From positions 351-43,961 of the forward strand of contig DOMJ01000003.1 in the NCBI GenBank assembly GCA_003509895.1: 43,611 bases of DNA, in the 5' to 3' direction. Within the stretch, counting starts at the first letter, position 1, and each line of letters begins with the position of its first letter. A model generated the notes under the pieces. It searched no databases, was not told the origin of the DNA, and saw nothing but the letters and a program-made list of their open reading frames with translations. This DNA is from Candidatus Uhrbacteria bacterium. Lineage in GTDB: Bacteria > Patescibacteriota > Patescibacteriia > UBA9934 > UBA11717. This document shows, one piece after another, positions 2,265 through 14,224 of the stretch. Position numbers and translations under genes: made by a program.

Positions 2265-3692
2265 TCAACGATCGGCGCTACGAGTAGCTGATCGTCTTTG
2301 TGGTCGAGAAGCACCAAGACCGGATCCACCGGAACGTCCCTGTGACCGTCCCTGTGACCGTCCACCTTGTGATCCGGATGAACTTCGCTTTGGATAGTTG
2401 CCTGTGTATCCACCGGATCGACCTTGTGGTCGAGACCCTCTACCGGCAGATCCGCCTCGACGATATTGTCCCCCGCCGCTTGATCGGCTCTGTCCGCCGG
2501 ACAAGGGCTTAATAGGATCCATCACCTCTCCGGAGGAAGATTTGATTGGGAGCGTGACATTAATCAACTGTTGAATTTGGTAAATTTCGCGTTTTTGATC
2601 GGGACAAGCAAACGAGATAGCCTTGCCGGATTGTCCTGCGCGACCCGTGCGTCCAATACGGTGAACGTAGTCTTCAAGTTGATCGGGAAGATCAAAGTTT
2701 AAAACAAGTTCAATATCCTTTACATCGATTCCGCGTGAAGCAATATCTGTTGCAACAAGGATGCGATACTTTCCCGTGGTGAATCCCTTGAGCGCACTTT
2801 GTCGCTGACTCTGCGTTCGGTTGGAATGAATTTCATCGGCGGTATGGCCAAGCAATCGGACGGCACGCGCAATCTTTTTTGCCCCGTGTTTTGTACGACT
2901 AAAGATGAGAACGGTTCCCTTATATTCCTTTAGCAGCCGTTCCATGAGCGCCATTTTGTCATCCTTGTGAACAATAAAAACCTCTTGATCAATTTTGTCA
3001 GCGGTGGTCCCCGGTTTTGCGACCTCAATCCGCAGTGGCTTTTTCATGTATTTTTGTGCAATGTCGGCAATCGCTTTTGGCATGGTTGCAGAAAAGAGCA
3101 TCGTTTGGCGATCGGTAGGGACTCCTTGAAGAATACGTTCAAGTTGTGGGGCAAATCCCATATCCAACATACGGTCGGCTTCGTCCAAAACAAGGATGCC
3201 AATGTTGCTGAGGTGAATGTTGCCTTGTTCAATGTGGTCAATGAGGCGACCGGGCGTTGCCACGATCACGTGAGGCTTGGCGCGCAATTGACGAATCTGT
3301 GGTCGCGGATTGGCACCACCTATCACAATGGCTGTGCGCAGACCGGATGTTCCGGCGAGCTTCCGAATGGTTTCCTCAACTTGCACAGCAAGCTCGCGTG
3401 TTGGCAAGAGGATTAAACCCATTGTTTTTGTAGAAGAAACATGTTGTAAAACAGGAATGGAGAAGGCGAGGGTTTTACCGGATCCTGTTTGCGCAATACC
3501 TACAACATCTTCACCGGCCGTTGCAACCGGAATGGCTTTATATTGAATAGGGGTAGGGTGCACAAACTTGAGCGCTTGTAGTCGCTTGAGCAAACCGGGT
3601 GTAATCCCGAGTCCGTTAAAATCTTGTTGTTCTAGTTCTTCTCTTGGCATGAAGGTGCAAGCATAGTCTGTTTGGGCCAATCTGTCAAGCAA
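2265..3692 (-). CDS. DEAD-box ATP-dependent RNA helicase with a C-terminal R/G/S-rich tail
   Basis: Q motif 'FVHPTPIQ', Walker A 'AQTGSGKT', 'VLDEADRMLD', 'SAT' and 'HRIGRTGRAG'. The tail of about 85 aa is 'GGQSRSSGGGQYRRGGSAGRGS...GRSQGRSQGRSGG'. A TTG start at 3692 is preceded by GGAGG. The alternative ATG is at 3650. Confidence 0.93.
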   Translation of the reverse strand: MLDRLAQTDYACTFMPREELEQQDFNGLGITPGLLKRLQALKFVHPTPIQYKAIPVATAGEDVVGIAQTGSGKTLAFSIPVLQHVSSTKTMGLILLPTRELAVQVEETIRKLAGTSGLRTAIVIGGANPRPQIRQLRAKPHVIVATPGRLIDHIEQGNIHLSNIGILVLDEADRMLDMGFAPQLERILQGVPTDRQTMLFSATMPKAIADIAQKYMKKPLRIEVAKPGTTADKIDQEVFIVHKDDKMALMERLLKEYKGTVLIFSRTKHGAKKIARAVRLLGHTADEIHSNRTQSQRQSALKGFTTGKYRILVATDIASRGIDVKDIELVLNFDLPDQLEDYVHRIGRTGRAGQSGKAISFACPDQKREIYQIQQLINVTLPIKSSSGEVMDPIKPLSGGQSRSSGGGQYRRGGSAGRGSRPQGRSGGYTGNYPKRSSSGSQGGRSQGRSQGRSGGSGLGASRPQRRSATRSADR

Positions 3693-3832
3693 TCATCCCT
3701 CCTTTTTCAAATTCTATCGCTTTTACTGCCTGTATGCCAGACAAATCTACGGAAAACGGGGATAGATTTAAAAAGGCACACGGCTCAAAATCTGGTATGA
3801 TAGAAAAAACACAGAGGATGAAGGAGCATATC

Positions 3833-4924
3833 ATGCGCCTTACGCGCTATTACCAAGTGCGAGCATTTTACGAATCGTATGAACGTTGGTTATTGCCGGC
3901 GGCGCTTTTGATTGGAGTGATTGTAGATTTTATTACGTTTAGAACGATTCAAATTGGTACGGCTTTTTTGATTCTGGGTGTGCACGCAATCCTTGCGGGG
4001 TTGAGTATTGCCTATGTCAATATGTATGGCGTCGGTATGATTCCAAAGAACCGCTTTACACGTTACCTACGTTTGCTTTCACCGCTCGCGTTACAGTTTA
4101 GTTTGGGAGCCCTTTTGAGTGCCTCCTTCATTTTTTATTGGTTTAGTGGATCCTTGTCGGCGAGTTGGCCGTTGATGGTTCTGTTAACGTTTCTTATGGT
4201 ATCCAATGAAACGTTGCGCACGTATTATCGCGAACCTGTGGTGCAGGTAAGTGTGTACTATTTTGTGATCCTCTCTTATTGCATCCTTGTGTTACCGTAC
4301 TGGCTTAACTCCCTTTCTGTGTGGGTTTTTTTGTTGAGTGGAGCGGTGAGTTTGGTTGTGATGAGCGTGTATCTCGGAATTTTATGCAAACGGTTAAAGA
4401 GATTTCGCGTGCGAAGAAGAAGAATGCGACTTGTTATTGTTGCTATTTTCTTGTGTATGAATGGATTTTACTTTTTGAATATGATCCCACCCATTCCGCT
4501 CTCGCTTACGGAGGCGGGTATGTATCATTTTATAGAGCCACGAACAGGCGGGTACCTGGTACAGGATGAGAAAACATCTTGGATTGATCAGCTGGTGCCG
4601 GGACAGACGCTTCACATCAGAAAGGGGGATCGGGTGTACGCGTACTCGGCGATCTTTGCTCCCGGTAAAATCAATACGCGTATTGTGCACCATTGGCAAT
4701 ATTTTAATGAAGCAACGGGCAAATGGGAATCTCGTGATCGACTCTCCTTTCCTATTGTTGGCGGAAGACAGAATGGGTATCGCGGGTACTCTCACAAGGG
4801 ATATATGAGCCAAGGAAAATGGCGCGTAGATGTGCAGACCACGCGTGGTCAAACACTTGGTCGTATGACGTTTACTGTTTTATGGGTGGATGTGCTTCCA
4901 GATCTTGTGCCTGTGATAAAATAG
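3833..4924 (+). CDS. multi-pass membrane protein with a C-terminal DUF2914-like domain
   Basis: Start moved to the ATG at 3833 because of the strong SD GAAGGAG 6 nt upstream (the track ORF starts at 3734). About 7 TM helices. The C-terminus 'IVHHWQYFNEATGKWESRDRLSFPIVGGRQNGYRGYSHK...GKWRVDVQT' resembles DUF2914. Confidence 0.6.
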   Translation: MRLTRYYQVRAFYESYERWLLPAALLIGVIVDFITFRTIQIGTAFLILGVHAILAGLSIAYVNMYGVGMIPKNRFTRYLRLLSPLALQFSLGALLSASFIFYWFSGSLSASWPLMVLLTFLMVSNETLRTYYREPVVQVSVYYFVILSYCILVLPYWLNSLSVWVFLLSGAVSLVVMSVYLGILCKRLKRFRVRRRRMRLVIVAIFLCMNGFYFLNMIPPIPLSLTEAGMYHFIEPRTGGYLVQDEKTSWIDQLVPGQTLHIRKGDRVYAYSAIFAPGKINTRIVHHWQYFNEATGKWESRDRLSFPIVGGRQNGYRGYSHKGYMSQGKWRVDVQTTRGQTLGRMTFTVLWVDVLPDLVPVIK

Positions 4925-4951
4925 AAGAACTAGTCATAATCTCCTCCTCGT

Positions 4952-5899
4952 ATGAAACAACCTATTCGATCGTTTGCTATGCTTGCTCTGTTTTTCGTGC
5001 TCGCATCTCCCGCTCTCGCTGGGCCGGATATTGCAGGGCCGGAAATAAGTGCCGTGTCTCCTTTGACCGCGCAATACACCGTGCCACAACAATTTTCTGT
5101 ATCTGCCCTAGACGAGGCGGGTGTAGCATCTTGCACCTTACTGGTTTCCAGTACCTATGAAACGCCCATGACGTACGATTCTGTTACGGGGATGTGGTCG
5201 GTTACCTACACCTTTACAACGTTTCGATCGGCAAACAGTATTCGTGCCGTGTGCGTGGATACGTACGGCAACTCAACCAATGGGCCAAGCAAAATTATTT
5301 CCGTGTCCGACGCGCCCATTGTTGTATCGCCAGGTGACGGAACACCTGTGGGAGGCGATCCGATAACGATTGACGCTACGGAATGGCCGGCGGCGGATGT
5401 GATTGCAGAATCACCCGTACTTATAAAAACAGTCTGCCCGGGGAATGAGGATTTCACGCACCCTTGCCGCACCGTGTACTTTTTGGATCATGCGGGTAAG
5501 CGTCATGCGTTTACCAATGAGAAAGCGTTCTTTACGTGGTATACCAATTACGATCAGTTGCATTTGGTGAGTACCGCAGTCATGGCATCGTATCCGCTCG
5601 GGCCAAATGTGCGCTATCGTCCCGGTGTAAAGATGATTAAGTTTCCGTCCGTGTCAACAGTGTATGCGGTTGGGCGGTATGGATCGCTCTTTCCGATCGG
5701 TTCGGAGTCGGTCGCAGAGGAGCTCTATGGAACCAATTGGAATCAACAGATTGATGACGTATCGGAAGTTTTTGCAACCAATTATACAATTGATAGTTGG
5801 AATATGATTTCCTCTGCCAGTCAATTTGATCGATCAATTATGCTAAGCTCAGTGAACTCTATCAATGATAATTTAGGAGAGCCTATTTTCCTTGAGTAA
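4952..5899 (+). CDS. secreted hypothetical protein
   Basis: Signal peptide 'SFAMLALFFVLASPALAGP'. The mature part is beta-rich. No family recognised. Confidence 0.6.
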   Translation: MKQPIRSFAMLALFFVLASPALAGPDIAGPEISAVSPLTAQYTVPQQFSVSALDEAGVASCTLLVSSTYETPMTYDSVTGMWSVTYTFTTFRSANSIRAVCVDTYGNSTNGPSKIISVSDAPIVVSPGDGTPVGGDPITIDATEWPAADVIAESPVLIKTVCPGNEDFTHPCRTVYFLDHAGKRHAFTNEKAFFTWYTNYDQLHLVSTAVMASYPLGPNVRYRPGVKMIKFPSVSTVYAVGRYGSLFPIGSESVAEELYGTNWNQQIDDVSEVFATNYTIDSWNMISSASQFDRSIMLSSVNSINDNLGEPIFLE

Positions 5900-5939
5900 A
5901 GGTAGCCCTCTTTCTACGCCCAATCTTAGAGATGTAGCA

Positions 5940-5973
5940 AAACGAAACACCCCCATGCGGGGGTGTTTCGTTT
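5940..5973. terminator. bidirectional intrinsic terminator (15-bp perfect stem)
   Basis: aaacgaaacaccccc-atgc-gggggtgtttcgttt lies between the convergent stops at 5899 (+) and 5972 (-). Confidence 0.85.
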
Positions 5974-6403
5974 ACTGTTTAAGAACACTGAATTTTGTTT
6001 TTCCATCCTCAATGCCGATGGTAATGGATCGCGTAACAATACTGTTAGGACCCGTGCCGCCCGGGTTTGCTTTTATATAGCTGCCAATAATCACGTCTTT
6101 ATCGGGATTGGCGATCACGGAGTTTTTGGCACTCACGGTGTCCTGAAATCCTTGTGCCATAAGTTGCGTATGAAACGAATCGCGTACCTCCTGCCAGGTT
6201 TGATCTGTGTAGCCAATCACCGTGTAATGACCGGCAACATCTGTGACGTTTGTAACGACACTGTCGTTTGGTAAATCCATCTCTAGAATCGTCTCAAGCG
6301 TCGGCACCTCGTAGACGGCGGTAGATGCTGGCGCTTGCGAAGAAGTGCATCCGGCACCCAATAAGAGAAACAGGAGGGCAACGGGAAAAACGTGTTTGAT
6401 CAT
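5972..6403 (-). CDS. small lipoprotein, function unknown
   Basis: N-terminus 'MIKHVFPVALLFLLLGAGCTSS' is a signal peptide plus lipobox LLGAGC. Confidence 0.7.
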   Translation of the reverse strand: MIKHVFPVALLFLLLGAGCTSSQAPASTAVYEVPTLETILEMDLPNDSVVTNVTDVAGHYTVIGYTDQTWQEVRDSFHTQLMAQGFQDTVSAKNSVIANPDKDVIIGSYIKANPGGTGPNSIVTRSITIGIEDGKTKFSVLKQ

Positions 6404-6503: not shown

Positions 6504-7058
6504 CTAGGACGACGTTGAACAGAAAGGCTTTATTGCCGCAACGCTTTTTTTGAGTGATGTATTCCCATAAAAACGACTAACCACCAATCGGCCAAAGGAA
6601 AATTGAATACCGGCCGATGTTGCAAGATTGGTTGGGAGATCCTCTTTTGTATCAAACAGTAAAACAACACCACCAAGACTCACGAGTTGTTCCAAACGAA
6701 GCTTGGATGCATCCGGCGTAGCCACACATACGTGCACGTCTCTTAGAGCGTGCGTTGGGATACGCGTTGGTGTATAACCCCAGCCTGTTCCAAATGTGAC
6801 AAAATCTTTATCGACACGCAATAGGAGGGGTGGGTGAATGAGATAGGGAATCTGACGAGCAATAATACTGATTGGGATGACGCCCAAAAAAACAGCAGCA
6901 AGCAGATAAACAAATACAGGCTGCGCCGTGAGCTGATCCGGAGAAAAGATCTTATGAAGAAAGGCGACCTCTAAACCAAACCAAAGCAAGAGACTCGCAC
7001 AGGCAACAAAAAAGAGCGTCGCGCGGCGGGAGAGATGGATTTCAAACGCCTCTGGCAT
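6504..7058 (-). CDS. membrane protein, function unknown (2 TM plus a soluble C-terminal domain)
   Basis: Two hydrophobic helices ('LFFVACASLLLWFGL', 'VFVYLLAAVFLGVIPISII') are followed by about 100 aa of soluble sequence. No motif recognised. Confidence 0.5.
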   Translation of the reverse strand: MPEAFEIHLSRRATLFFVACASLLLWFGLEVAFLHKIFSPDQLTAQPVFVYLLAAVFLGVIPISIIARQIPYLIHPPLLLRVDKDFVTFGTGWGYTPTRIPTHALRDVHVCVATPDASKLRLEQLVSLGGVVLLFDTKEDLPTNLATSAGIQFSFGRLVVSRFYGNTSLKKSVAAIKPFCSTSS

Positions 7059-7121
7059 GTGGAACTATTTAGATGTTTCTTGTTGTATGTTACCACAAAC
7101 GTCCTGCTTGAGAGATGATCT

Positions 7122-8129
7122 TTATGTACAGAGCTCTGTACTTTTGGAAAATTTACGCGCATAGATACGTTCAATCGCCTGGCTCACAAAGACAAAAATA
7201 AGAAGCATGATGGCATAGAGAGCCAATACCTTCCAATAATTTTCTGTTTGAACCGGAGTGAGCGTACAGAGCAGTAAGGCCAACCAAGAGCCAACCCATA
7301 AGGACCCAATGCTAAACGCCCATCTCCTAAGAGGATGAAGCTGGTGTGTTTTTTGAATATTTTTTGTGCGATAGGAAACATTGATGAGCTTAGGTGCAAT
7401 ATGAAAGTTCAAGAAGAGGCTGGTTGCAAGCAGGACGCTCAAAATAGTTGTTTTGAGGAGAAGGATTGAATCCGGGGGCTGTGCTACGGGATTTGCTACA
7501 AAGAGGGTCGCGTCACTTATCAGTAAGATAACGAGAGCGGCCCAAATGAGTTCAAAGAGCACGCGCAGCGCCTGTGATTCTGCTGGCGAGATGGAAAAGT
7601 CGCGCAAAAATCGAAAAAATAACAACAAAGAAATGGCGACACCGGCAATCCCAATGCCAAGAGACACGGCACTGATTGTGGAAATGAGAGGAGCCAGTGG
7701 CTGTAGGTAAAAGGTGGCAACAGAAAGATCAGAGACAAGTCCAATACTAAAACAAATAGTCGTAATGAGTGCCGATGTCAAGCACCATGTACAGAGCTTG
7801 CGGATGGTGATTACCTGAATAAACGTCAGGTACAGAGAAAAGAGAAACCCAATCGTGGTGAGAAGAAGGAGGAGGGGTGCGAGGCGTTCTGCTGTTGAGG
7901 GAAGAATAATGACGGTGCTGTAACCCACGGCGAGGATACCATAATAGAGCAGACCAAGGAGTTCTACCGGAATGCCAAGAAACAGGGAAAAGGAGCTGCC
8001 CGTAACGGCATGACAATTACCGCGTAAAGGACAAATAAGTGGTTGTTTTTTTGTTTTTGTGTAACGAATGTAAAACGAAATACAAAAACCGCATGCCGCA
8101 AGGATGATAATAAACAGGTACAGGGTCAT
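7122..8129 (-). CDS. vitamin K epoxide reductase (VKOR) domain fused to an additional C-terminal polytopic membrane domain
   Basis: Loop Cys pair 'CPLRGNC', conserved 'SSFSLFLGIPVELLGLLYYG' and active-site 'CTWC'. About 190 further residues with roughly 5 predicted TM helices follow. Start moved to the ATG at 8129, because the track's TTG start at 8216 lies inside the upstream gene's terminator hairpin. Confidence 0.75.
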   Translation of the reverse strand: MTLYLFIIILAACGFCISFYIRYTKTKKQPLICPLRGNCHAVTGSSFSLFLGIPVELLGLLYYGILAVGYSTVIILPSTAERLAPLLLLLTTIGFLFSLYLTFIQVITIRKLCTWCLTSALITTICFSIGLVSDLSVATFYLQPLAPLISTISAVSLGIGIAGVAISLLLFFRFLRDFSISPAESQALRVLFELIWAALVILLISDATLFVANPVAQPPDSILLLKTTILSVLLATSLFLNFHIAPKLINVSYRTKNIQKTHQLHPLRRWAFSIGSLWVGSWLALLLCTLTPVQTENYWKVLALYAIMLLIFVFVSQAIERIYARKFSKSTELCT

Positions 8130-8152
8130 AGAGGTGTAGAAGAATTGGCTCA

Positions 8153-8161
8153 AGTATAGCA
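8153..8161 (-). promoter_or_regulatory. extended -10 promoter element TGcTATACT (minus strand)
   Basis: The reverse complement reads TGCTATACT, about 24 nt upstream of the ATG at 8129. Confidence 0.45.
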
Positions 8162-8180
8162 TGCGGGAGTAGGTGTTTGT

Positions 8181-8213
8181 AGAGATAAACAAAAGACCAG
8201 CACACGCTGGTCT
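8181..8213 (-). terminator. intrinsic terminator of the lipoprotein gene 8222..8845
   Basis: The minus strand reads agaccagc-gtgt-gctggtct followed by TTTTGTTTAT. Confidence 0.75.
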
Positions 8214-8221
8214 CAAGGAAA

Positions 8222-8845
8222 CTATTTTCTGAATGTATAGGAGATTGGAACGCCGTCTGTGGAGGGATTGAAGCTGATCGTGAGGACGCTTAAATCGTTG
8301 CTGATTGTGTAGGTGTAGGCCATGTGCAACCCATCAGCATCGGTGCTCACGGGCCCGGTACCAAGGGGAGGCGTTGTTCCACTCACCTCAATGGCTATGC
8401 CATTTGCCTGACAACGGAGCGTTGCGTTGCTCCCGGTTGGATACACCTTCAGAGTCGCCTCACTCTGTGCCGTGTCAAATGATGCCTTAAAGCTTCCACC
8501 GCCATATCCAATTCCCTCGCACGTGCTTACGCCCGGATATTCCGGTAGGCTCCTTTCTTTTAATTCATTCGTCCAATCCTCACCGTAGGCACCGTAATTT
8601 GATTCGCCGAGGTTGTTAATGGCAAACGTTGTTTCTCGACCGCTGAATGGATGAGTCTGTCCGGCAATAAGCACGGAGTCCAGTGTCCAGCTTCCAAGAA
8701 GCGCTTCATCCACGCCGTCAGCATTAATACAGCTATTCCACGGGGTTGTGGCAAGACATTGAGCAAAGGGGTCGCCGGATAAACAACCAGCACCCAGGAG
8801 CACGAGAGAGAGCACAAGGGCTCCAAATACGTTTGGTATTTTCAT
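8222..8845 (-). CDS. lipoprotein, function unknown
   Basis: Start set at 'MKIPNVFGALVLSLVLLGAGC' (signal peptide plus lipobox). The track ORF extends to 8884. Confidence 0.65.
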   Translation of the reverse strand: MKIPNVFGALVLSLVLLGAGCLSGDPFAQCLATTPWNSCINADGVDEALLGSWTLDSVLIAGQTHPFSGRETTFAINNLGESNYGAYGEDWTNELKERSLPEYPGVSTCEGIGYGGGSFKASFDTAQSEATLKVYPTGSNATLRCQANGIAIEVSGTTPPLGTGPVSTDADGLHMAYTYTISNDLSVLTISFNPSTDGVPISYTFRK

Positions 8846-8874
8846 AGAAAGAGGAAAGGAATAAAGATAATGAA

Positions 8875-8883
8875 AGTATAGCA
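8875..8883 (-). promoter_or_regulatory. extended -10 promoter element TGcTATACT (minus strand)
   Basis: The reverse complement reads TGCTATACT, about 30 nt upstream of the ATG at 8845. Confidence 0.4.
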
Positions 8884-8989
8884 TAGGGTGCAGAACACAC
8901 GGAGTAAGAGGGAGTTGATGCTTTTGACAAAGGGCATGGTTTGGGAGAAAATGTATTTACATTAACTTAAGTGCTCTATAAAACGCTCT

Positions 8990-9400
8990 ATGAAACGCAC
9001 AACACTTGGCGGCATGGTTATCGTGGCGCCGTTTGCTCTCCTGTTCTTGATCCTTATTGCGTATGCAATTTCTAACGCGGTTGCGAGTACGATGATTTTA
9101 GAGGGCTCGCTTTCCAATCAAGTAACCTCTGCAGACACAGCGAGTTTAAACAGCAATCCCTCGGATCAAGCGGCATTAAAAATAAATCCATCCGCATTAA
9201 CCATGGAGGATTCGGAGACGACCGCCTTCCAGGTGCAAGGTGAATCCGTTGATTCTTCCGTTAATGCTTCCGTTGTTGTTATGAGCATTTTCAATGCCGT
9301 TCTTGGGTTCTTGGGTGTGCTGGCTGTGCTCGGCATGTTTGTTTGTGTTCCATTGGGAATCTACTTGCTTGCAACAAAAGGAAAAGCACAAAAGTCATGA
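8990..9400 (+). CDS. small two-TM membrane protein with an S/T/N-rich extracytoplasmic loop
   Basis: TM helices lie at both ends ('MVIVAPFALLFLILIAYAI', 'LGFLGVLAVLGMFVCVPLGIYLL'). TATAAA at 8977-8982 is 7 nt upstream of the ATG. The stop overlaps the next start (ATGA). Confidence 0.6.
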   Translation: MKRTTLGGMVIVAPFALLFLILIAYAISNAVASTMILEGSLSNQVTSADTASLNSNPSDQAALKINPSALTMEDSETTAFQVQGESVDSSVNASVVVMSIFNAVLGFLGVLAVLGMFVCVPLGIYLLATKGKAQKS

Positions 9401-9990: not shown

Positions 9991-11103
9991 ATGACAACAC
10001 AAGATCGCATCCAAGCGTTACTCGTGGGCTCGGGCATCACCATAAACGGATCAGAAACGTGGGATCCACAAATAAGGCAGGAAGGCTTTTACAAGCGAGT
10101 TTTGACAAAGGCAAATCTTGGATTGGGAGAGGCGTTTATGGACGGCTGGTGGGAGTGCCGTCAGATAGACGAGTTTATTTGTCGATTATTGAAGGTGGAT
10201 ATAAAGGATCGTCTTAAGCGCGATTGGCCGTCTGTGGCTATTGCGCTTGCTTCGGTACTACTCAACAGGCAATCAAGTAAACGCGCGTTCCATATTGGAG
10301 AGGTACATTATGATGCCGGAAACGATTTGTATGAGGCGATGTTGGATACGCGGATGGTGTATACCTGTGGATATTGGAAACAGGCACAAACGCTGGAAGA
10401 CGCGCAAGAGGCCAAGTTGGATTTGGTGTGTAAAAAAATCGGATTAAAGGCAGGTGACACAGTGTTGGACATTGGATGCGGATGGGGAAGCTTTGCCAAG
10501 TTTGCGGCCGAGCGGTACGGGGCGCAAGTGGTAGGCATTACGGTTTCCAAGGAACAAAAGAGGCTCGCAGAGGACCGTTGTAAGGGGTTGCCGGTAGAAA
10601 TTCGTTTACAGGATTACAGAGACGTAAACGAGCCGTTTGATCACATCGTGTCTCTTGGAATGATTGAACATGTTGGGTATAAAAATTATCAAACCTACAT
10701 GAAGGTAGCGGCAAAAAATCTTAAAGAGGGCGGAATGTTTTTGCTGCACACCATCGGGTCTCTTGAATCCGGTATCTCCACCGACCCGTGGATTGAAAAA
10801 TATATTTTCCCTAATTCTATGTTGCCGAGCCTTGCACAGCTTACAAAGGCGGTAGAAGGGTTGTTTGTAGTGGAGGATGTGCAGAACTTTGGGGCAGATT
10901 ACGACAAAACGCTCATGGCGTGGTTTGCCAATTTTCATGCCGCCTGGCCACAATTACGGGATCAGTACGATGAGCGATTCTATAAAATGTGGAAATATTA
11001 CCTGCTTTCCTGTGCGGGATCGTTTAGGTCTCGTAGGAATCAGTTATGGCAAATGGTGCTCTCCAAAGGTGGAGTAGAGGGTGTGTACCAATCCGTGCGA
11101 TAA
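9991..11103 (+). CDS. cfa: cyclopropane-fatty-acyl-phospholipid synthase
   Basis: 370 aa. SAM motif 'VLDIGCGWGSFAKFAAERYGAQVVGITVS', plus 'IVSLGMIEHVG' and 'YYLLSCAGSFR', typical of the Cfa/mycolic acid cyclopropane synthase family. Confidence 0.9.
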   Translation: MTTQDRIQALLVGSGITINGSETWDPQIRQEGFYKRVLTKANLGLGEAFMDGWWECRQIDEFICRLLKVDIKDRLKRDWPSVAIALASVLLNRQSSKRAFHIGEVHYDAGNDLYEAMLDTRMVYTCGYWKQAQTLEDAQEAKLDLVCKKIGLKAGDTVLDIGCGWGSFAKFAAERYGAQVVGITVSKEQKRLAEDRCKGLPVEIRLQDYRDVNEPFDHIVSLGMIEHVGYKNYQTYMKVAAKNLKEGGMFLLHTIGSLESGISTDPWIEKYIFPNSMLPSLAQLTKAVEGLFVVEDVQNFGADYDKTLMAWFANFHAAWPQLRDQYDERFYKMWKYYLLSCAGSFRSRRNQLWQMVLSKGGVEGVYQSVR

Positions 11104-11173
11104 AAGAGATAAACGATTGAAGTCAAAAAGGCGCTTATTTTAGTCAAATATTTTAGTTCAAACAAACGAGGGG

Positions 11174-11202
11174 TTGACAAACGCCTCGTTTTGTGTTATA
11201 AA
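11174..11202 (+). promoter_or_regulatory. near-consensus sigma70-type promoter (TTGACA-17-TGtTATAAA)
   Basis: TTGACA at 11174-11179, a 17-nt spacer, and TATAAA at 11197-11202 preceded by TGt. The -35 box sits in the loop of a hairpin (AACGAGG 11165-71 / CCTCGTT 11184-90, then TTTTGTGTT) that could also act as the cfa terminator. Confidence 0.6.
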
Positions 11203-11208
11203 GGGTCC

Positions 11209-11670
11209 ATCGCAATGGGTGAGCAACTGGCTCCCAGCGATTGACGGCGACCGCCCCTTCTGGGGCGAGACAATCGTTGCTCTCTGCGGAGAGAGTAACG
11301 TGTCGGCCCTGAAAAGCCGATAGATCCCCAATGGTACTCCGTCATTGGTACCAAAGGGCGTGGCAGCGACGGCGGCTGCAACGGTCCAGTTCGTCTTTGG
11401 CAAAACAGGAGCAATCCTACCATTGACGACCGATACAGAGGAAAGAAAGGAACGCGTTCGTGCTGTAAGCGCGTGGGTACCTTTCCTCTGTATGGACCAA
11501 AAAAAACATACGGCCAATCCCTCCCGTCCGATTGGGTGAGGCCGTTTGCAGGGGGTGTGCCGGAGGCACGCCGGCGCACCCCCTCCCTTTCCCTCACGGG
11601 GAAAGAACATCGACGTCCGCGAGGCGCTTAGCATGGAGTTATCCATCTGCTGGCGCCTCGTTTTCGTTTT
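11209..11670 (+). ncRNA. candidate large structured ncRNA, family not recognised
   Basis: It lies between the promoter above and a terminator (GAGGCGC 11621-27 / GCGCCTC 11653-59, then TTTTCGTTTT). Many local helices are present, including 13-bp stems at 11433-45/11481-93 and 11551-63/11571-83. I counted 69/100 GC in 11521-11620. No ORF has an SD. The end coordinates are estimates. Confidence 0.5.
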
Positions 11671-11712
11671 ACGCGCACGTCATCTAATTTCGTTGCGTTT
11701 ACCGCTCAATAT

Positions 11713-11721
11713 TGTTACTGT
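11713..11721 (+). promoter_or_regulatory. extended -10 element TGtTACTGT, 7 nt upstream of the rlmD-like ATG
   Basis: A possible -35 TTGCGT lies 17 nt upstream. There is no SD between the box and the ATG at 11729. Confidence 0.4.
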
Positions 11722-11728
11722 GCGGCAC

Positions 11729-13009
11729 ATGGAACGCGTTACGATAGAAAAAATGGTCTTTGGCGGGCAGGGGATGGGGCGTCTTGCAGACGGTCCGATT
11801 GCTTTTGTCTGGAACGCTCTCCCGGGCGAGGAGGTGGAAATAGAGGTGATCAAAAAAAAGCACGGATATCGTGAGGGCATTGCACGCACGATTTTACAAC
11901 CATCTGTGGATCGCATAGAGCCGTTGGAGCCCGGATCGTATTTATCTACGTCTCCTTGGCAGATGATGACCTTTGAGGCAGAGCAACGGTACAAGACAGA
12001 GATGGCTCGAGAAGCATTTGCCAAACTCGGCCATATAGAATTTCAGGCATTACCGATTGAGGGAGATGCGTCTGCTCTGTACGGCTACCGCAACAAAATA
12101 GAATTTTCTTTTTTTACAGAAACCCGCGAGTCTCCGTTGCAACTCTGTTTTTACGCACGCGGTTCCCATCAAAAAATTGCCGTAGAGGGCAGCGCGTTGG
12201 CTGAGCCGATTATCAATGAAGTCGCACACCGCGTATTGGATTGGCTCATTGCGCAGAAAATCAATCGCTTGGATTTAAAAACGCTGATTGTGCGCAGTAA
12301 TGGGCAAGGACAAGCCATTGCCGCATTGTTTGTAAAAGAAACGCTGGATGTAGATGTGTATCCGGAGCTCACCGGGCAGTTTAAGGGATTTCAAATTTAT
12401 TATTCCAACCCAAAAAGCCCCGCGTCTGTCCCAACCGATTTGTTGTACTCACAGGGCGACGATTTTTTATTGGTGGACATTCAGAGCGTTACCATGCGCT
12501 GTGGCCTGCTCAGCTTCTTTCAGGTCAATCAACCGATCTTTGCTAAAACCCTCACGGATATTCAAACGTTTCTTGGACCACAACAGCACATTGTGGATGT
12601 GTACTCCGGCGTTGGATCCATTGGTCTGACGCTTGCGAGTAAGGCCGCATCTGTGACGCTTGTTGAGAGTAACAGCGAGGCGTGTGCGTACGCGCGGCAA
12701 AATGTTGCGTTAAACAAATTTACCAATGTGTCGGTTGTAGAGGCGACAGCAGAACGCGTGGTGGAGGAGATTGTGGGAGATCGGATGATTATTTTAGACC
12801 CACCGCGCGCCGGTGTTCATACAGATGTGATTGATCGCCTTTTGGAGGTATTGCCACCAAAAATTGCGTACCTCTCCTGTAATATTTCTACACAAGCACG
12901 CGACATCCAACTTTTGTTAGGGTCCTACAAAATTGTTCACGCAGCTCTTTACAACTACTTTCCAAGAACACCGCACGTGGAATCTTTGGTGTTTCTGGAG
13001 CGGCGTTAA
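11729..13009 (+). CDS. 23S rRNA (uracil-5-)-methyltransferase, RumA/RlmD/TrmA family (TRAM plus SAM MTase)
   Basis: Start set at 'MERVTIEKMVFGGQGMGRL' (TRAM domain); the track ORF starts at 11546 inside the GC-rich spacer. MTase motifs 'VDVYSGVGSIG' and 'ILDPPRAGV', with the catalytic 'YLSCN'. Confidence 0.85.
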   Translation: MERVTIEKMVFGGQGMGRLADGPIAFVWNALPGEEVEIEVIKKKHGYREGIARTILQPSVDRIEPLEPGSYLSTSPWQMMTFEAEQRYKTEMAREAFAKLGHIEFQALPIEGDASALYGYRNKIEFSFFTETRESPLQLCFYARGSHQKIAVEGSALAEPIINEVAHRVLDWLIAQKINRLDLKTLIVRSNGQGQAIAALFVKETLDVDVYPELTGQFKGFQIYYSNPKSPASVPTDLLYSQGDDFLLVDIQSVTMRCGLLSFFQVNQPIFAKTLTDIQTFLGPQQHIVDVYSGVGSIGLTLASKAASVTLVESNSEACAYARQNVALNKFTNVSVVEATAERVVEEIVGDRMIILDPPRAGVHTDVIDRLLEVLPPKIAYLSCNISTQARDIQLLLGSYKIVHAALYNYFPRTPHVESLVFLERR

Positions 13010-13038: not shown

Positions 13039-13785
13039 ATGAAAAATTCAACCAAAAAAAGTCTTTACCTGTGGGGAGGGTCGTTCCTTGCTCTGGGCTT
13101 ATTAGTTTGGGGTCTTGCAAGAATGAGTGGTGGGTATAACAGTGGAACGTTTAACGCGGTTCCGTTGGACCTCACTTCTGCGGCGGAGTTTGAGCACGTG
13201 AAGGGTCCGATGGATGCGGGTGTGACCATTGTGGAGTATTCGGATTTTCAGTGCCCATATTGTAAGCAAGCCGTCCCGGTGGTGGAGCAGATTTTGGCAG
13301 AGTATCCGGACACGGTGAACCTTATTTACAGACACTACCCATTAAGACAAGCACACGCACAGACGCAACTGGCGGCAGAGGTATCGGAGGCGGCGGGTAG
13401 ACAGGGAAAATTTTGGGAAATGCATGATGTTTTGTTTGCCAATCAAGAAAAATGGTCGGGAAATTTGGGAGCTCGATCCATTTTTGAAGCGTATGCCGAG
13501 GCATTAGAATTAGACGTTGCATTATTTAAAACAGATTTACAGGATCGGGCGCTCGCAGAGAAGGTTCAACATGATTATGAAAGTGGCAACGATGCCGGTG
13601 TACGGGGAACCCCTACGTTTTTTATTAATGGCGTTAAGTTAAAAGTCCCCAGTTATGCCGGATTTGTGGAGGCCATCAATACGGAACTTGACCGCCTGGA
13701 GGAGGTGCGCGAATCCACGATCAATGCGGGAGAAAGCGGCAGTAATCCGGAAACAGTAGGAACGGATGCTCCAACAGCTGAATAA
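13039..13785 (+). CDS. DsbA-family thiol:disulfide oxidoreductase (membrane-anchored or secreted)
   Basis: N-terminal TM 'LWGGSFLALGLLVWGL', thioredoxin-fold CxxC 'FQCPYC' and 'GTPTFFING'. Confidence 0.85.
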   Translation: MKNSTKKSLYLWGGSFLALGLLVWGLARMSGGYNSGTFNAVPLDLTSAAEFEHVKGPMDAGVTIVEYSDFQCPYCKQAVPVVEQILAEYPDTVNLIYRHYPLRQAHAQTQLAAEVSEAAGRQGKFWEMHDVLFANQEKWSGNLGARSIFEAYAEALELDVALFKTDLQDRALAEKVQHDYESGNDAGVRGTPTFFINGVKLKVPSYAGFVEAINTELDRLEEVRESTINAGESGSNPETVGTDAPTAE

Positions 13786-13786
13786 C

Positions 13787-14224
13787 ATGACATCCAAGTT
13801 GACAACGTGGATTGCGCGAGGACTCCTCTTGGTGAGTCCGATTGGGTTTTTGGATGCAACATACCTCACGCTCAAACACTACGCCGGTCAAACGGTCGGC
13901 TGCACCATTACGCAAGGGTGCGAGATTGTTACCACAAGCAGCTACTCTGTTTTTTATGGTATTCCTGTGGCGTTATTTGGAGTACTCTATTATCTGCTTA
14001 TTGTTTTGCTGATGATAGCCTATGTTGATCGTAAGCAAGAGAACGTCATTCGTCTTGCCTGTTGGATCACGCCTGTGGGTTTTGTCGCATCTTTGTACTT
14101 TGTTGGTATTCAAGCGTTTGTTTTACAGGCCTGGTGTCAGTATTGTATTGGGTCTGCCATAACATCCACTCTTTTGTTTTTGTTGGGAATGACTTACTTG
14201 GCAACGCATAAACGCTCAAATTAA
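13787..14224 (+). CDS. vitamin K epoxide reductase (VKOR) family protein
   Basis: Loop cysteines 'GCTITQGC', 'SSYSVFYGIPVALFGVLYY' and active-site 'CQYC'. The ATG is 1 nt after the dsbA stop. Confidence 0.85.
   Translation: MTSKLTTWIARGLLLVSPIGFLDATYLTLKHYAGQTVGCTITQGCEIVTTSSYSVFYGIPVALFGVLYYLLIVLLMIAYVDRKQENVIRLACWITPVGFVASLYFVGIQAFVLQAWCQYCIGSAITSTLLFLLGMTYLATHKRSN

Follow-up and report, generated by a model that had tools for sequence, protein, structure and literature searches.

What, if anything, is encoded in the 625-bp gap between the cfa-like and rlmD-like genes of this Candidatus Uhrbacteria bacterium (contig DOMJ01000003.1; the 43,611 nucleotides (nt) analysed are hereafter called the window)? 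The initial annotation, made from the sequence, had proposed a gene for a structured RNA, complete with a promoter and a terminator of its own. This proposal was supported by the predicted fold, by a homologue in a second species, by the lack of a match in Rfam, and by the non-coding character of the region. The best explanation overall, with a probability of about 0.6, is a lineage-restricted structured non-coding RNA (ncRNA) gene of about 460 nt, which would be transcribed independently and would act in trans. Its two components are not equally firm: a real RNA gene under selection is highly probable, and the mechanism, a trans-acting riboregulator or a protein-binding RNA, is put forward tentatively, by analogy with known RNAs. 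The locus was assigned as follows (window coordinates).

9991-11103: cfa-like gene, stop at 11103 (Pfam CMAS, expectation value (E) 5e-91)
11167-11192, + strand: terminator-like hairpin (11167-88; CGAGGGG / loop TTGACAAA / CGCCTCG), then the start of a U-tract
11174-11202, + strand: sigma-70-type promoter; -35 box TTGACA at 11174-79, 17-nt spacer, TGtTATAAA at 11194-11202 (extended -10 TG at 11194-95, -10 box TATAAA at 11197-11202)
11209-11668, + strand: predicted non-coding RNA transcript of about 460 nt, assigned from fold z-score, homologue, no Rfam match and no coding signal
11620-11670, + strand: intrinsic terminator; outer stem CGAGGCGC/GCGCCUCG, inner stem AUGGA/UCCAU, then UUUUCGUUUU
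11693-11729, + strand: promoter of rlmD; TTGCGT, 17-nt spacer, TACTGT at 11716-21, ending 7 nt before the ATG
11729: ATG of the rlmD-like gene (Pfam tRNA_U5-meth_tr and TRAM)

The gap measures 625 bp (11104-11728), from the cfa stop to the rlmD ATG, as had been reported. The promoter, described initially as the best of the window, is indeed the sole match to the extended -10 consensus with two or fewer mismatches in the 43.6 kb, and the longer module surrounding it also occurs once; transcription is predicted to start near A11209. Note that an automatic promoter rule skipped 11174-11202 and labelled 11170-11187 as a terminator-like hairpin instead. The -35 hexamer is placed inside the loop of the hairpin at 11167-88, and the U-tract of this hairpin is the promoter spacer, an arrangement that the initial annotation had missed. 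The hairpin probably stops cfa transcription and so insulates the RNA gene; alternatively, it may be a palindromic operator centred on the -35 box. The GC hairpin terminator was read where it had been claimed, as a two-tier hairpin (in DNA, stem CGAGGCGC at 11620-27 with GCGCCTCG at 11653-60, then the T-run TTTTCGTTTT at 11661-70). The -10 box attributed to the downstream gene is likewise present, and since this promoter ends 7 nt before the ATG, the rlmD mRNA would be leaderless and separate from the RNA gene.

Secondary structure was predicted for 11205-11672. The minimum free energy of the plus strand is -225.8 kcal/mol (z -7.8; 0 of 100 shuffled sequences were as good) and that of the minus strand -212.4 kcal/mol (z -6.4). 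In a sliding scan with 240-nt frames over the first 14 kb of the window, the spacer region is the strongest folding outlier. The GC content of 11209-11668 is 58% versus 48% for the whole window, and a recount of 11521-11620 agreed with the 69 of 100 given before. The helices drawn in the initial annotation are all present where they had been placed; however, two of them, CAGCGATTG/CAATCGTTG (11235-43/11271-79) and CCAAAG/CTTTGG, lack their partners in the homologous locus described below (L019) and compete with retained, covarying helices, and these two are not supported. The retained structure consists of the following elements.

11209-11241, + strand: H1, 5' hairpin with an AUCGC/GCGAU closing stem and inner stems; closing stem invariant versus L019
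11248-11382, + strand: variable 5' third with five short hairpins, H2-H6; in L019 two hairpins only, about 80 nt shorter
11383-11498, + strand: H7, three-way junction with closing stem GGUCC/GGACC and arms H7a and H7b
11459-11464, + strand: candidate kissing-loop strand CGUGCU in the H7b apical loop, complementary to GGCACG at 11565-11570 in the H9 loop
11510-11545, + strand: H8, hairpin with C-rich apical loop CCUCCCGUCC and invariant internal loop GGGUGA
11551-11583, + strand: H9, 13-bp GC-rich hairpin with loop AGGCACG; includes a U-G wobble pair
11587-11605, + strand: H10, hairpin CUUUCCC-UCACG-GGGAAAG

The H7a arm is capped by a GCAA tetraloop, and in H7b an internal loop separates a stem of 13 bp from one of 6 bp. 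The loops of the predicted RNA are AACUG, UUCU, GCGG, GCAA, CCUCCCGUCC, AGGCACG, UCACG and GUUA, and the hairpin caps include GNRA and UNCG tetraloops (GCAA, UUCG). The H8 loop reads CCUCCC(G/A)UCC across the two species, and H10 is retained in L019 only through a register shift of one nt, with its loop UCACG invariant. The six-nt complementarity between the H7b and H9 loops is present in both species, and all five substitutions of the 11-nt H7b loop lie outside CGUGCU; this suggests a kissing-loop contact between H7b and H9, with no covariation behind it. As a separate observation from the sliding scan of the first 14 kb, the second strongest folding outlier is 10081-10320 (plus strand), inside cfa (z about -6.6, with 12 shuffles only); either part of the cfa coding sequence is structured or the signal is noise.

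A homologue, for which the initial annotation had suggested a search, was found in a second Candidatus Uhrbacteria species at the same position between cfa and rlmD. The locus (L019/L020, the same as L028; Candidatus Uhrbacteria bacterium CG10_big_fil_rev...) has an RlmD with 81% amino acid (aa) identity and the gene order CYTH-cfa-gap-rlmD of the window; its gap is 563 bp and the RNA about 385 nt. Identical copies of the window were also found in three independent groundwater data sets. Identities by segment were obtained from the pairwise window/L019 alignment (A1), and base pairs were taken from the hand-mapped helices. The identities to L019 are as follows.

Upstream spacer: 43%
Hairpin and promoter: 92%
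H1: 87%
About 135 nt after H1: essentially unalignable (79 gap columns; 45% where alignable)
H7: 85%
H8: 86%
H9: 100% (33/33)
H10 region: 70%
Terminator: 80%
Linkers between hairpins: 0-44%
Downstream spacer: 57%

The four-fold degenerate sites of cfa, rlmD and CYTH are 34-45% identical between the window and L019, and the whole coding sequences 70-75%. Since the identity of the promoter and core is far above the former and also above the latter, purifying selection on them would be stronger than on the neighbouring proteins. The conserved positions include apical and internal loops (GCAA, AAAGGA/GGGUAC, GGGUGA, AGGCACG, UCACG, CUGCUG), and the linkers between the hairpins are variable. The stem at 11167-11192 is retained in L019 and in a more distant locus, L021, with G-C/G-U changes on the 3' arm. 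The outer stem of the terminator differs in sequence in L019 yet still pairs (GGGGCC/GGCCUU), and the U-tract is invariant.

Conserved helices, as expected of a structured RNA, were recovered in this single contrast. Over the 94 hand-mapped pairs, 95.2% of the cells form standard pairs, and five pairs changed on both sides are still paired: in H7, one in the closing stem (U-A to C-G) and two in H7a (both C-G to A-U); in H8, two in the closing stem (A-U to G-C and G-C to A-U). When the partners were slid by 1-3 columns as a control, pairing fell to 36-48% and compensatory pairs to 0-1. RNAalifold, applied independently to the 3' domain, gave seven compensatory pairs. The U-G wobbles of H7b2 and H9 are kept in both species, and the minus strand would have C-A mismatches at these positions; the plus strand is favoured because of these wobbles, in line with its better folding energy.

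Known RNA families were searched with Rfam 15, at the gathering score for the window and four related loci and at E<=10 for the region, L019, L021 and the metagenomic locus L027. No family reached the gathering score in the whole window, and the search at E<=10 gave, over the sequences searched, only chance matches (mir-629, Ms1, STnc50, PhotoRC-I and TLS-PK4; the first four in the region), none common to the homologues. The features of a generic independent bacterial small RNA or ncRNA gene were found in the region, namely a predicted promoter and terminator, no coding signal, and compensatory structure. The window RNA would be a newly recognised orphan family, of a general kind that is already familiar.

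Its distribution is narrow. The relatives of the window by RlmD identity are at 81%, 68%, 66%, 66% and 62%, then at 56% and below. In L049 (RlmD 56%), the order is VKOR-...-CYTH-cfa-rlmD and the cfa stop overlaps the rlmD start; in L051 (RlmD 56%, Cfa 79%), the cfa|rlmD spacer is 124 nt, AT-rich and without the RNA. In L021, L023, L047, L048 and L050, other genes are located upstream of rlmD and no comparable RNA was found there. The RNA is also absent from 15 further loci found by rlmD (41-51% identity; genome contig scan). Scanning metagenomes for the promoter pattern yielded 22 matches, mostly generic strong promoters, of which only those in L028 and L027 are relevant, and a search with the neighbouring 184-aa protein as query returned only the two known species. 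Because cfa and rlmD overlap or are 124 nt apart in the outgroups, the parsimonious account places the gain of the RNA gene at this site in the shared ancestor of both species. Most likely, judging from these comparisons, it is an insertion in one small Uhrbacteria lineage and not a broadly conserved RNA of the Candidate Phyla Radiation (CPR).

The proposed course of events is the following. In an ancestor common to both species, an RNA gene would have been inserted at the junction where cfa and rlmD had previously abutted. The terminator-like hairpin, with the -35 box in its loop, would end cfa transcription; the near-consensus extended -10 promoter would then fire about 7 nt downstream, and transcription would stop at the strong intrinsic terminator, 58 nt short of the leaderless rlmD. 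At its 5' end the RNA would have a conserved hairpin, followed by a block of short hairpins that changes quickly and by a conserved 3' core made of the three-way junction, the C-rich-loop hairpin, the 13-bp GC hairpin and the small hairpin. The core stems and the apical and internal loops would be under purifying selection while the linkers drift freely. The conserved loops may serve as recognition surfaces of an RNA acting in trans, with the CCUCCC loop, complementary to a Shine-Dalgarno-like GGAGG, as a candidate surface; the folded core may be held by the H7b-H9 loop-loop contact.

This pattern is closer to that of multi-hairpin regulators (RNAIII-like RNAs or protein-binding arrays) than to that of ribozymes and housekeeping RNAs. 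RNAIII of Staphylococcus aureus is a 514-nt multi-hairpin regulatory RNA. The window RNA shares with it a similar length, a chain of about a dozen hairpins, its own strong promoter and an intrinsic terminator, conserved terminal domains with a middle that varies between species, and C-rich apical loops that could pair with Shine-Dalgarno regions. There is no sequence or structural homology and no Rfam match. Unlike RNAIII, the window RNA lacks an embedded peptide gene and activator sites of the agr type; a search of the window gave no targets for it, and it is known from two uncultured Patescibacteria only. The sponge RNAs of the CsrB/RsmZ type are alike in having hairpin arrays whose hairpin number changes fast between species, free linkers, and a strong promoter and terminator; however, the loop inventory given above has no repeated GGA-in-loop motif and there is no Rfam match, so that membership is not indicated.

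Several points weigh against the preferred explanation of a lineage-restricted RNA gene acting in trans. Only two carrier species were found, and all the comparative statistics come from the comparison of a single pair, which falls short of statistical proof. Two sequences make for a weak shuffle control, in which 26 of 500 shuffles reach five compensatory pairs. The drifting linkers and the gain and loss of hairpins are compatible with a weakly constrained element as well. In 362 kb of related loci, the covariance model R1, built from the H7-H10 core, matches nothing beyond the window and L019. The trans-acting mechanism rests on analogy, and no complementarity of at least 13 nt to anything else in the window was found in the search for antisense targets.

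The lineage-restricted RNA gene might belong to a wider group, and this is the first of the alternatives to be weighed. On this account, the window RNA would belong to a class, specific to Patescibacteria, of multi-hairpin RNAs of about 400-500 nt that are highly expressed, with a common control module (ACGAGGGGTTGACAnAC..CTCGTTTTGTGTTAT, a hairpin/operator around the -35 box, then an extended -10) and with bodies diverged beyond recognition. We regard it as rather unlikely. In L021 (TARA scaffold_906, RlmD 68%), the module AACGAGGGGTTGACAtACCTCTCGTTTTGTGTTAT is located about 4 kb upstream in the same neighbourhood (nhmmer E 1e-4); it is identical to that of the window at 34 of 37 positions and adjoins the orthologue of the window gene at 6504-7058. 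Positions 60-600 of L021 hold a distinct GC-rich, hairpin-dense sequence of about 490 nt (100-600), which the module would drive and which ends in a 17-bp terminator (z -4.7, no Rfam match). In L027 (Ga0172379_10004937), 2898-3450 hold a CGAGGG-TTGACA-CCCTCG-TTTTGTGTTAT module and then about 480 nt without open reading frames (ORFs; z -3.5). Homology of the window RNA body with the bodies in L021 and L027 was rejected, with no colinear k-mers and no body match by nhmmer; model R1, run in L021 with the filters off, found only a generic GC hairpin at the terminator. Only the promoter module is common to the three RNAs. A looser version of it precedes protein genes in L023, and thus the resemblance is partly a lineage habit of overlapping terminator and promoter. 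Orthology of the L021 and L027 RNAs with that of the window would make these the first dedicated system of riboregulators or structured RNAs described for CPR bacteria, with the unusual property of a promoter more conserved than its product.

Three observations adjoin this comparison. The terminator-in-promoter design (-35 TTGACA in a hairpin loop, a U-tract as spacer, and an extended -10; TGTGTTATA) is found before both RNA and protein genes, at the following sites.

Window: 11167-11202
L023: 154-190 and 2221-2250
L037
L032

The palindrome of this design could equally be an operator. At the window site equivalent to that of L021 (5900-6500), a second RNA gene was considered and rejected, the stretch being a real lipoprotein gene; a perfect GC hairpin at 5935-5975 (AAACGAAACACCCCCATGCGGGGGTGTTTCGTTT), between two convergent genes, is likely an ordinary bidirectional terminator. 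Beyond the module and the RNA-sized stretch of L027, its positions 3455-5000 are also without long ORFs, with a sub-threshold His_leader match (33 bits versus a gathering score of 49).

A large RNA with a tertiary fold, that is, a ribozyme or a self-assembling scaffold, is an unlikely alternative, although somewhat less so than those that follow. Large ornate RNAs known from bacteria include OLE, ROOL, GOLLD and raiA (PMC12286853, PMC5737381). The window RNA is like them as a bacterial ncRNA in the class of at least 400 nt, with many helices, tetraloops, possible long-range contacts and no assigned function; its size (385-460 nt in the two species) is a range occupied in bacteria mostly by ribozymes and ornate RNAs. 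The three-way junction with GNRA and UNCG tetraloops, the invariant internal loops AAAGGA/GGGUAC and GGGUGA, and the H7b/H9 complementarity avoided by all the loop substitutions argue in the same direction, and the complementarity leaves room for a compact fold. However, no covariance model of OLE, ROOL, GOLLD, raiA or HEARO matched at E<=10. Conservation is lowest in the linkers and junction strands (0-44% identity), the reverse of known ornate RNAs, and the junctions of the window RNA are not conserved; one third of the molecule is replaceable; and the RNA occurs in two species rather than hundreds, with no phage or tRNA association. Group II introns are recognised by their domain V/VI consensus, a GUGYG 5' end and, for class C, insertion after a terminator. 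For an ORF-less group II intron, no Intron_gpII match and no domain V-like sequence was seen in the region, and the sole resemblance is the position right after a terminator hairpin.

That the conservation is only apparent, the promoter and terminator being incidental parts of a selfish or inert GC-rich insertion (a mobile-element remnant or foreign DNA), appears improbable. Such an insertion would explain the outgroup cfa|rlmD junctions without the element, a GC content about 10 points above the genome, the internal hairpins gained and lost, and the similar CGAGG.G...C.CCTCG-TTTT hairpins at both ends in the window. Yet the core is 85-100% identical, against 34-45% at neutral sites, and carries the five compensatory pairs. 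The end similarity was examined as mobile-element inverted repeats (CGAGG..CCTCG) and this was rejected, L019 being without it. No target-site duplication or transposase was found at the element in the window/L019 comparison, and BLAST against phage and plasmid collections and four scans of viral contigs gave no match. Only one copy of the element is present in the window, and in the 330-kb contig of the sister species the promoter pattern was found a single time; this, together with the unconserved ends, does not indicate a miniature inverted-repeat transposable element or a repetitive extragenic palindrome.

A cis-acting leader or attenuator of rlmD, or a mere long insulator between cfa and rlmD, is quite improbable. 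The element is on the same strand as rlmD and directly upstream, and its terminator is 58 nt before the start codon; on the other hand, rlmD has the promoter of its own already described, and the same layout is seen in L019 and also in L023 and L047, which are without the RNA. The terminator has an 8-bp GC stem and a long U-tract, and RNAalifold found no conserved antiterminator in the 3' domain; no riboswitch or leader family matched, and relatives have 0-124 nt at the cfa|rlmD site. Apart from this, it is observed that rlmD is apparently leaderless in four species, with TTG...-17-TAnnnT placed 7 nt before the ATG and no Shine-Dalgarno sequence, at the following positions.

Window: 11693-11729
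L019: about 5020-5061
L023: 890-931
L047: 990-1033

A highly divergent housekeeping RNA missed by the Rfam models in CPR bacteria is very improbable. The size is like that of RNase P RNA or transfer-messenger RNA (tmRNA) and the promoter looks strong and constitutive, but, as the initial annotation had already noted, no match to RNase P RNA, tmRNA, signal recognition particle RNA, 6S RNA or a riboswitch was obtained, here by Rfam at E<=10 and by ARAGORN. RNase P RNA is recognised by the P4 pseudoknot, GAGGAAAGUCC with a distal ...GGCUUA strand. RF00010 and RF00011 gave no match in the window or L019 at the gathering score or E<=10, and GAGGAAAG at 11438-45 pairs locally with CUUUCCUC at 11481-88 and not as a P4-type pseudoknot. 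tmRNA has a tRNA-like acceptor/T-arm domain and a tag reading frame; ARAGORN found no tRNA or tmRNA in the window, L019, L021, L023 or L024. 6S RNA and Ms1 form an extended hairpin with a central bubble mimicking an open promoter. The window RNA resembles them as an abundant-looking stable RNA with its own promoter and through a weak Ms1 alignment (16.3 bits, E 0.08), but the gathering score is 162, the alignment is absent in L019, as is that with mir-629, and the fold is multi-branched and not a single long hairpin with a central bubble. In addition, a recent insertion that is unrecognisable at 68% RlmD identity is incompatible with an essential ancient RNA.

Finally, that the region encodes one or more small proteins is least likely of all: ORFs of 49-162 aa are present on both strands and the plus-strand ORF at 11473-11631 starts with the same residues in both species, but a Shine-Dalgarno sequence is lacking, the GTG start lies hidden within a stem, the peptides predicted are of low complexity and rich in R, P and G with no Pfam matches or homologues, the plus-strand ORF shows 2 synonymous versus 9 non-synonymous codon differences and stops that differ between the species (52 versus 79 aa), the window/L019 substitutions are distributed over codon positions as 10/18/14 without 3-periodicity, and the minus-strand ORF of 162 aa is fragmented in L019 over different frames and has no relative but itself in 5.8 billion and 1.84 billion proteins. 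The coding exclusion proposed initially was thus obtained, with no codon periodicity and no ORF retained between the species.

Large bacterial ncRNAs are rare. Since CPR genomes are very compact, a 460-nt non-coding gene under selection would be unlikely to be idle. Beyond universal RNAs such as rRNA, tRNA, RNase P RNA and tmRNA, no regulatory or large structured RNA was found for CPR bacteria in the literature searched. Once validated, such an RNA would open a way into the gene regulation, or the symbiosis-related functions, of CPR organisms that cannot be grown alone, and the combination of conserved hairpins and free linkers may help to define a fast-evolving RNA class missed by homology searches. 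A very narrow distribution limits the value of the predicted RNA, as does the absence of clues to its function.

Two further observations concern the neighbouring genes. The Cfa of the window is 79% identical (aa) to that of L051 though the adjacent RlmD is only 56% identical; between the sister pair, the values are 83% for Cfa and 81% for RlmD. Either cfa (window 9991-11103 versus L051 1-657) is much more constrained or it has been horizontally exchanged among these CPR lineages. The neighbourhood of rlmD, rich in thiol-redox genes, is conserved across the Uhrbacteria clade (window 6504-9400 and 13039-14224; L019, L021 and L047-L051). It contains two VKOR genes, a DsbA-like thioredoxin and, in some relatives, AhpC, and the gene just upstream of rlmD varies by genome.

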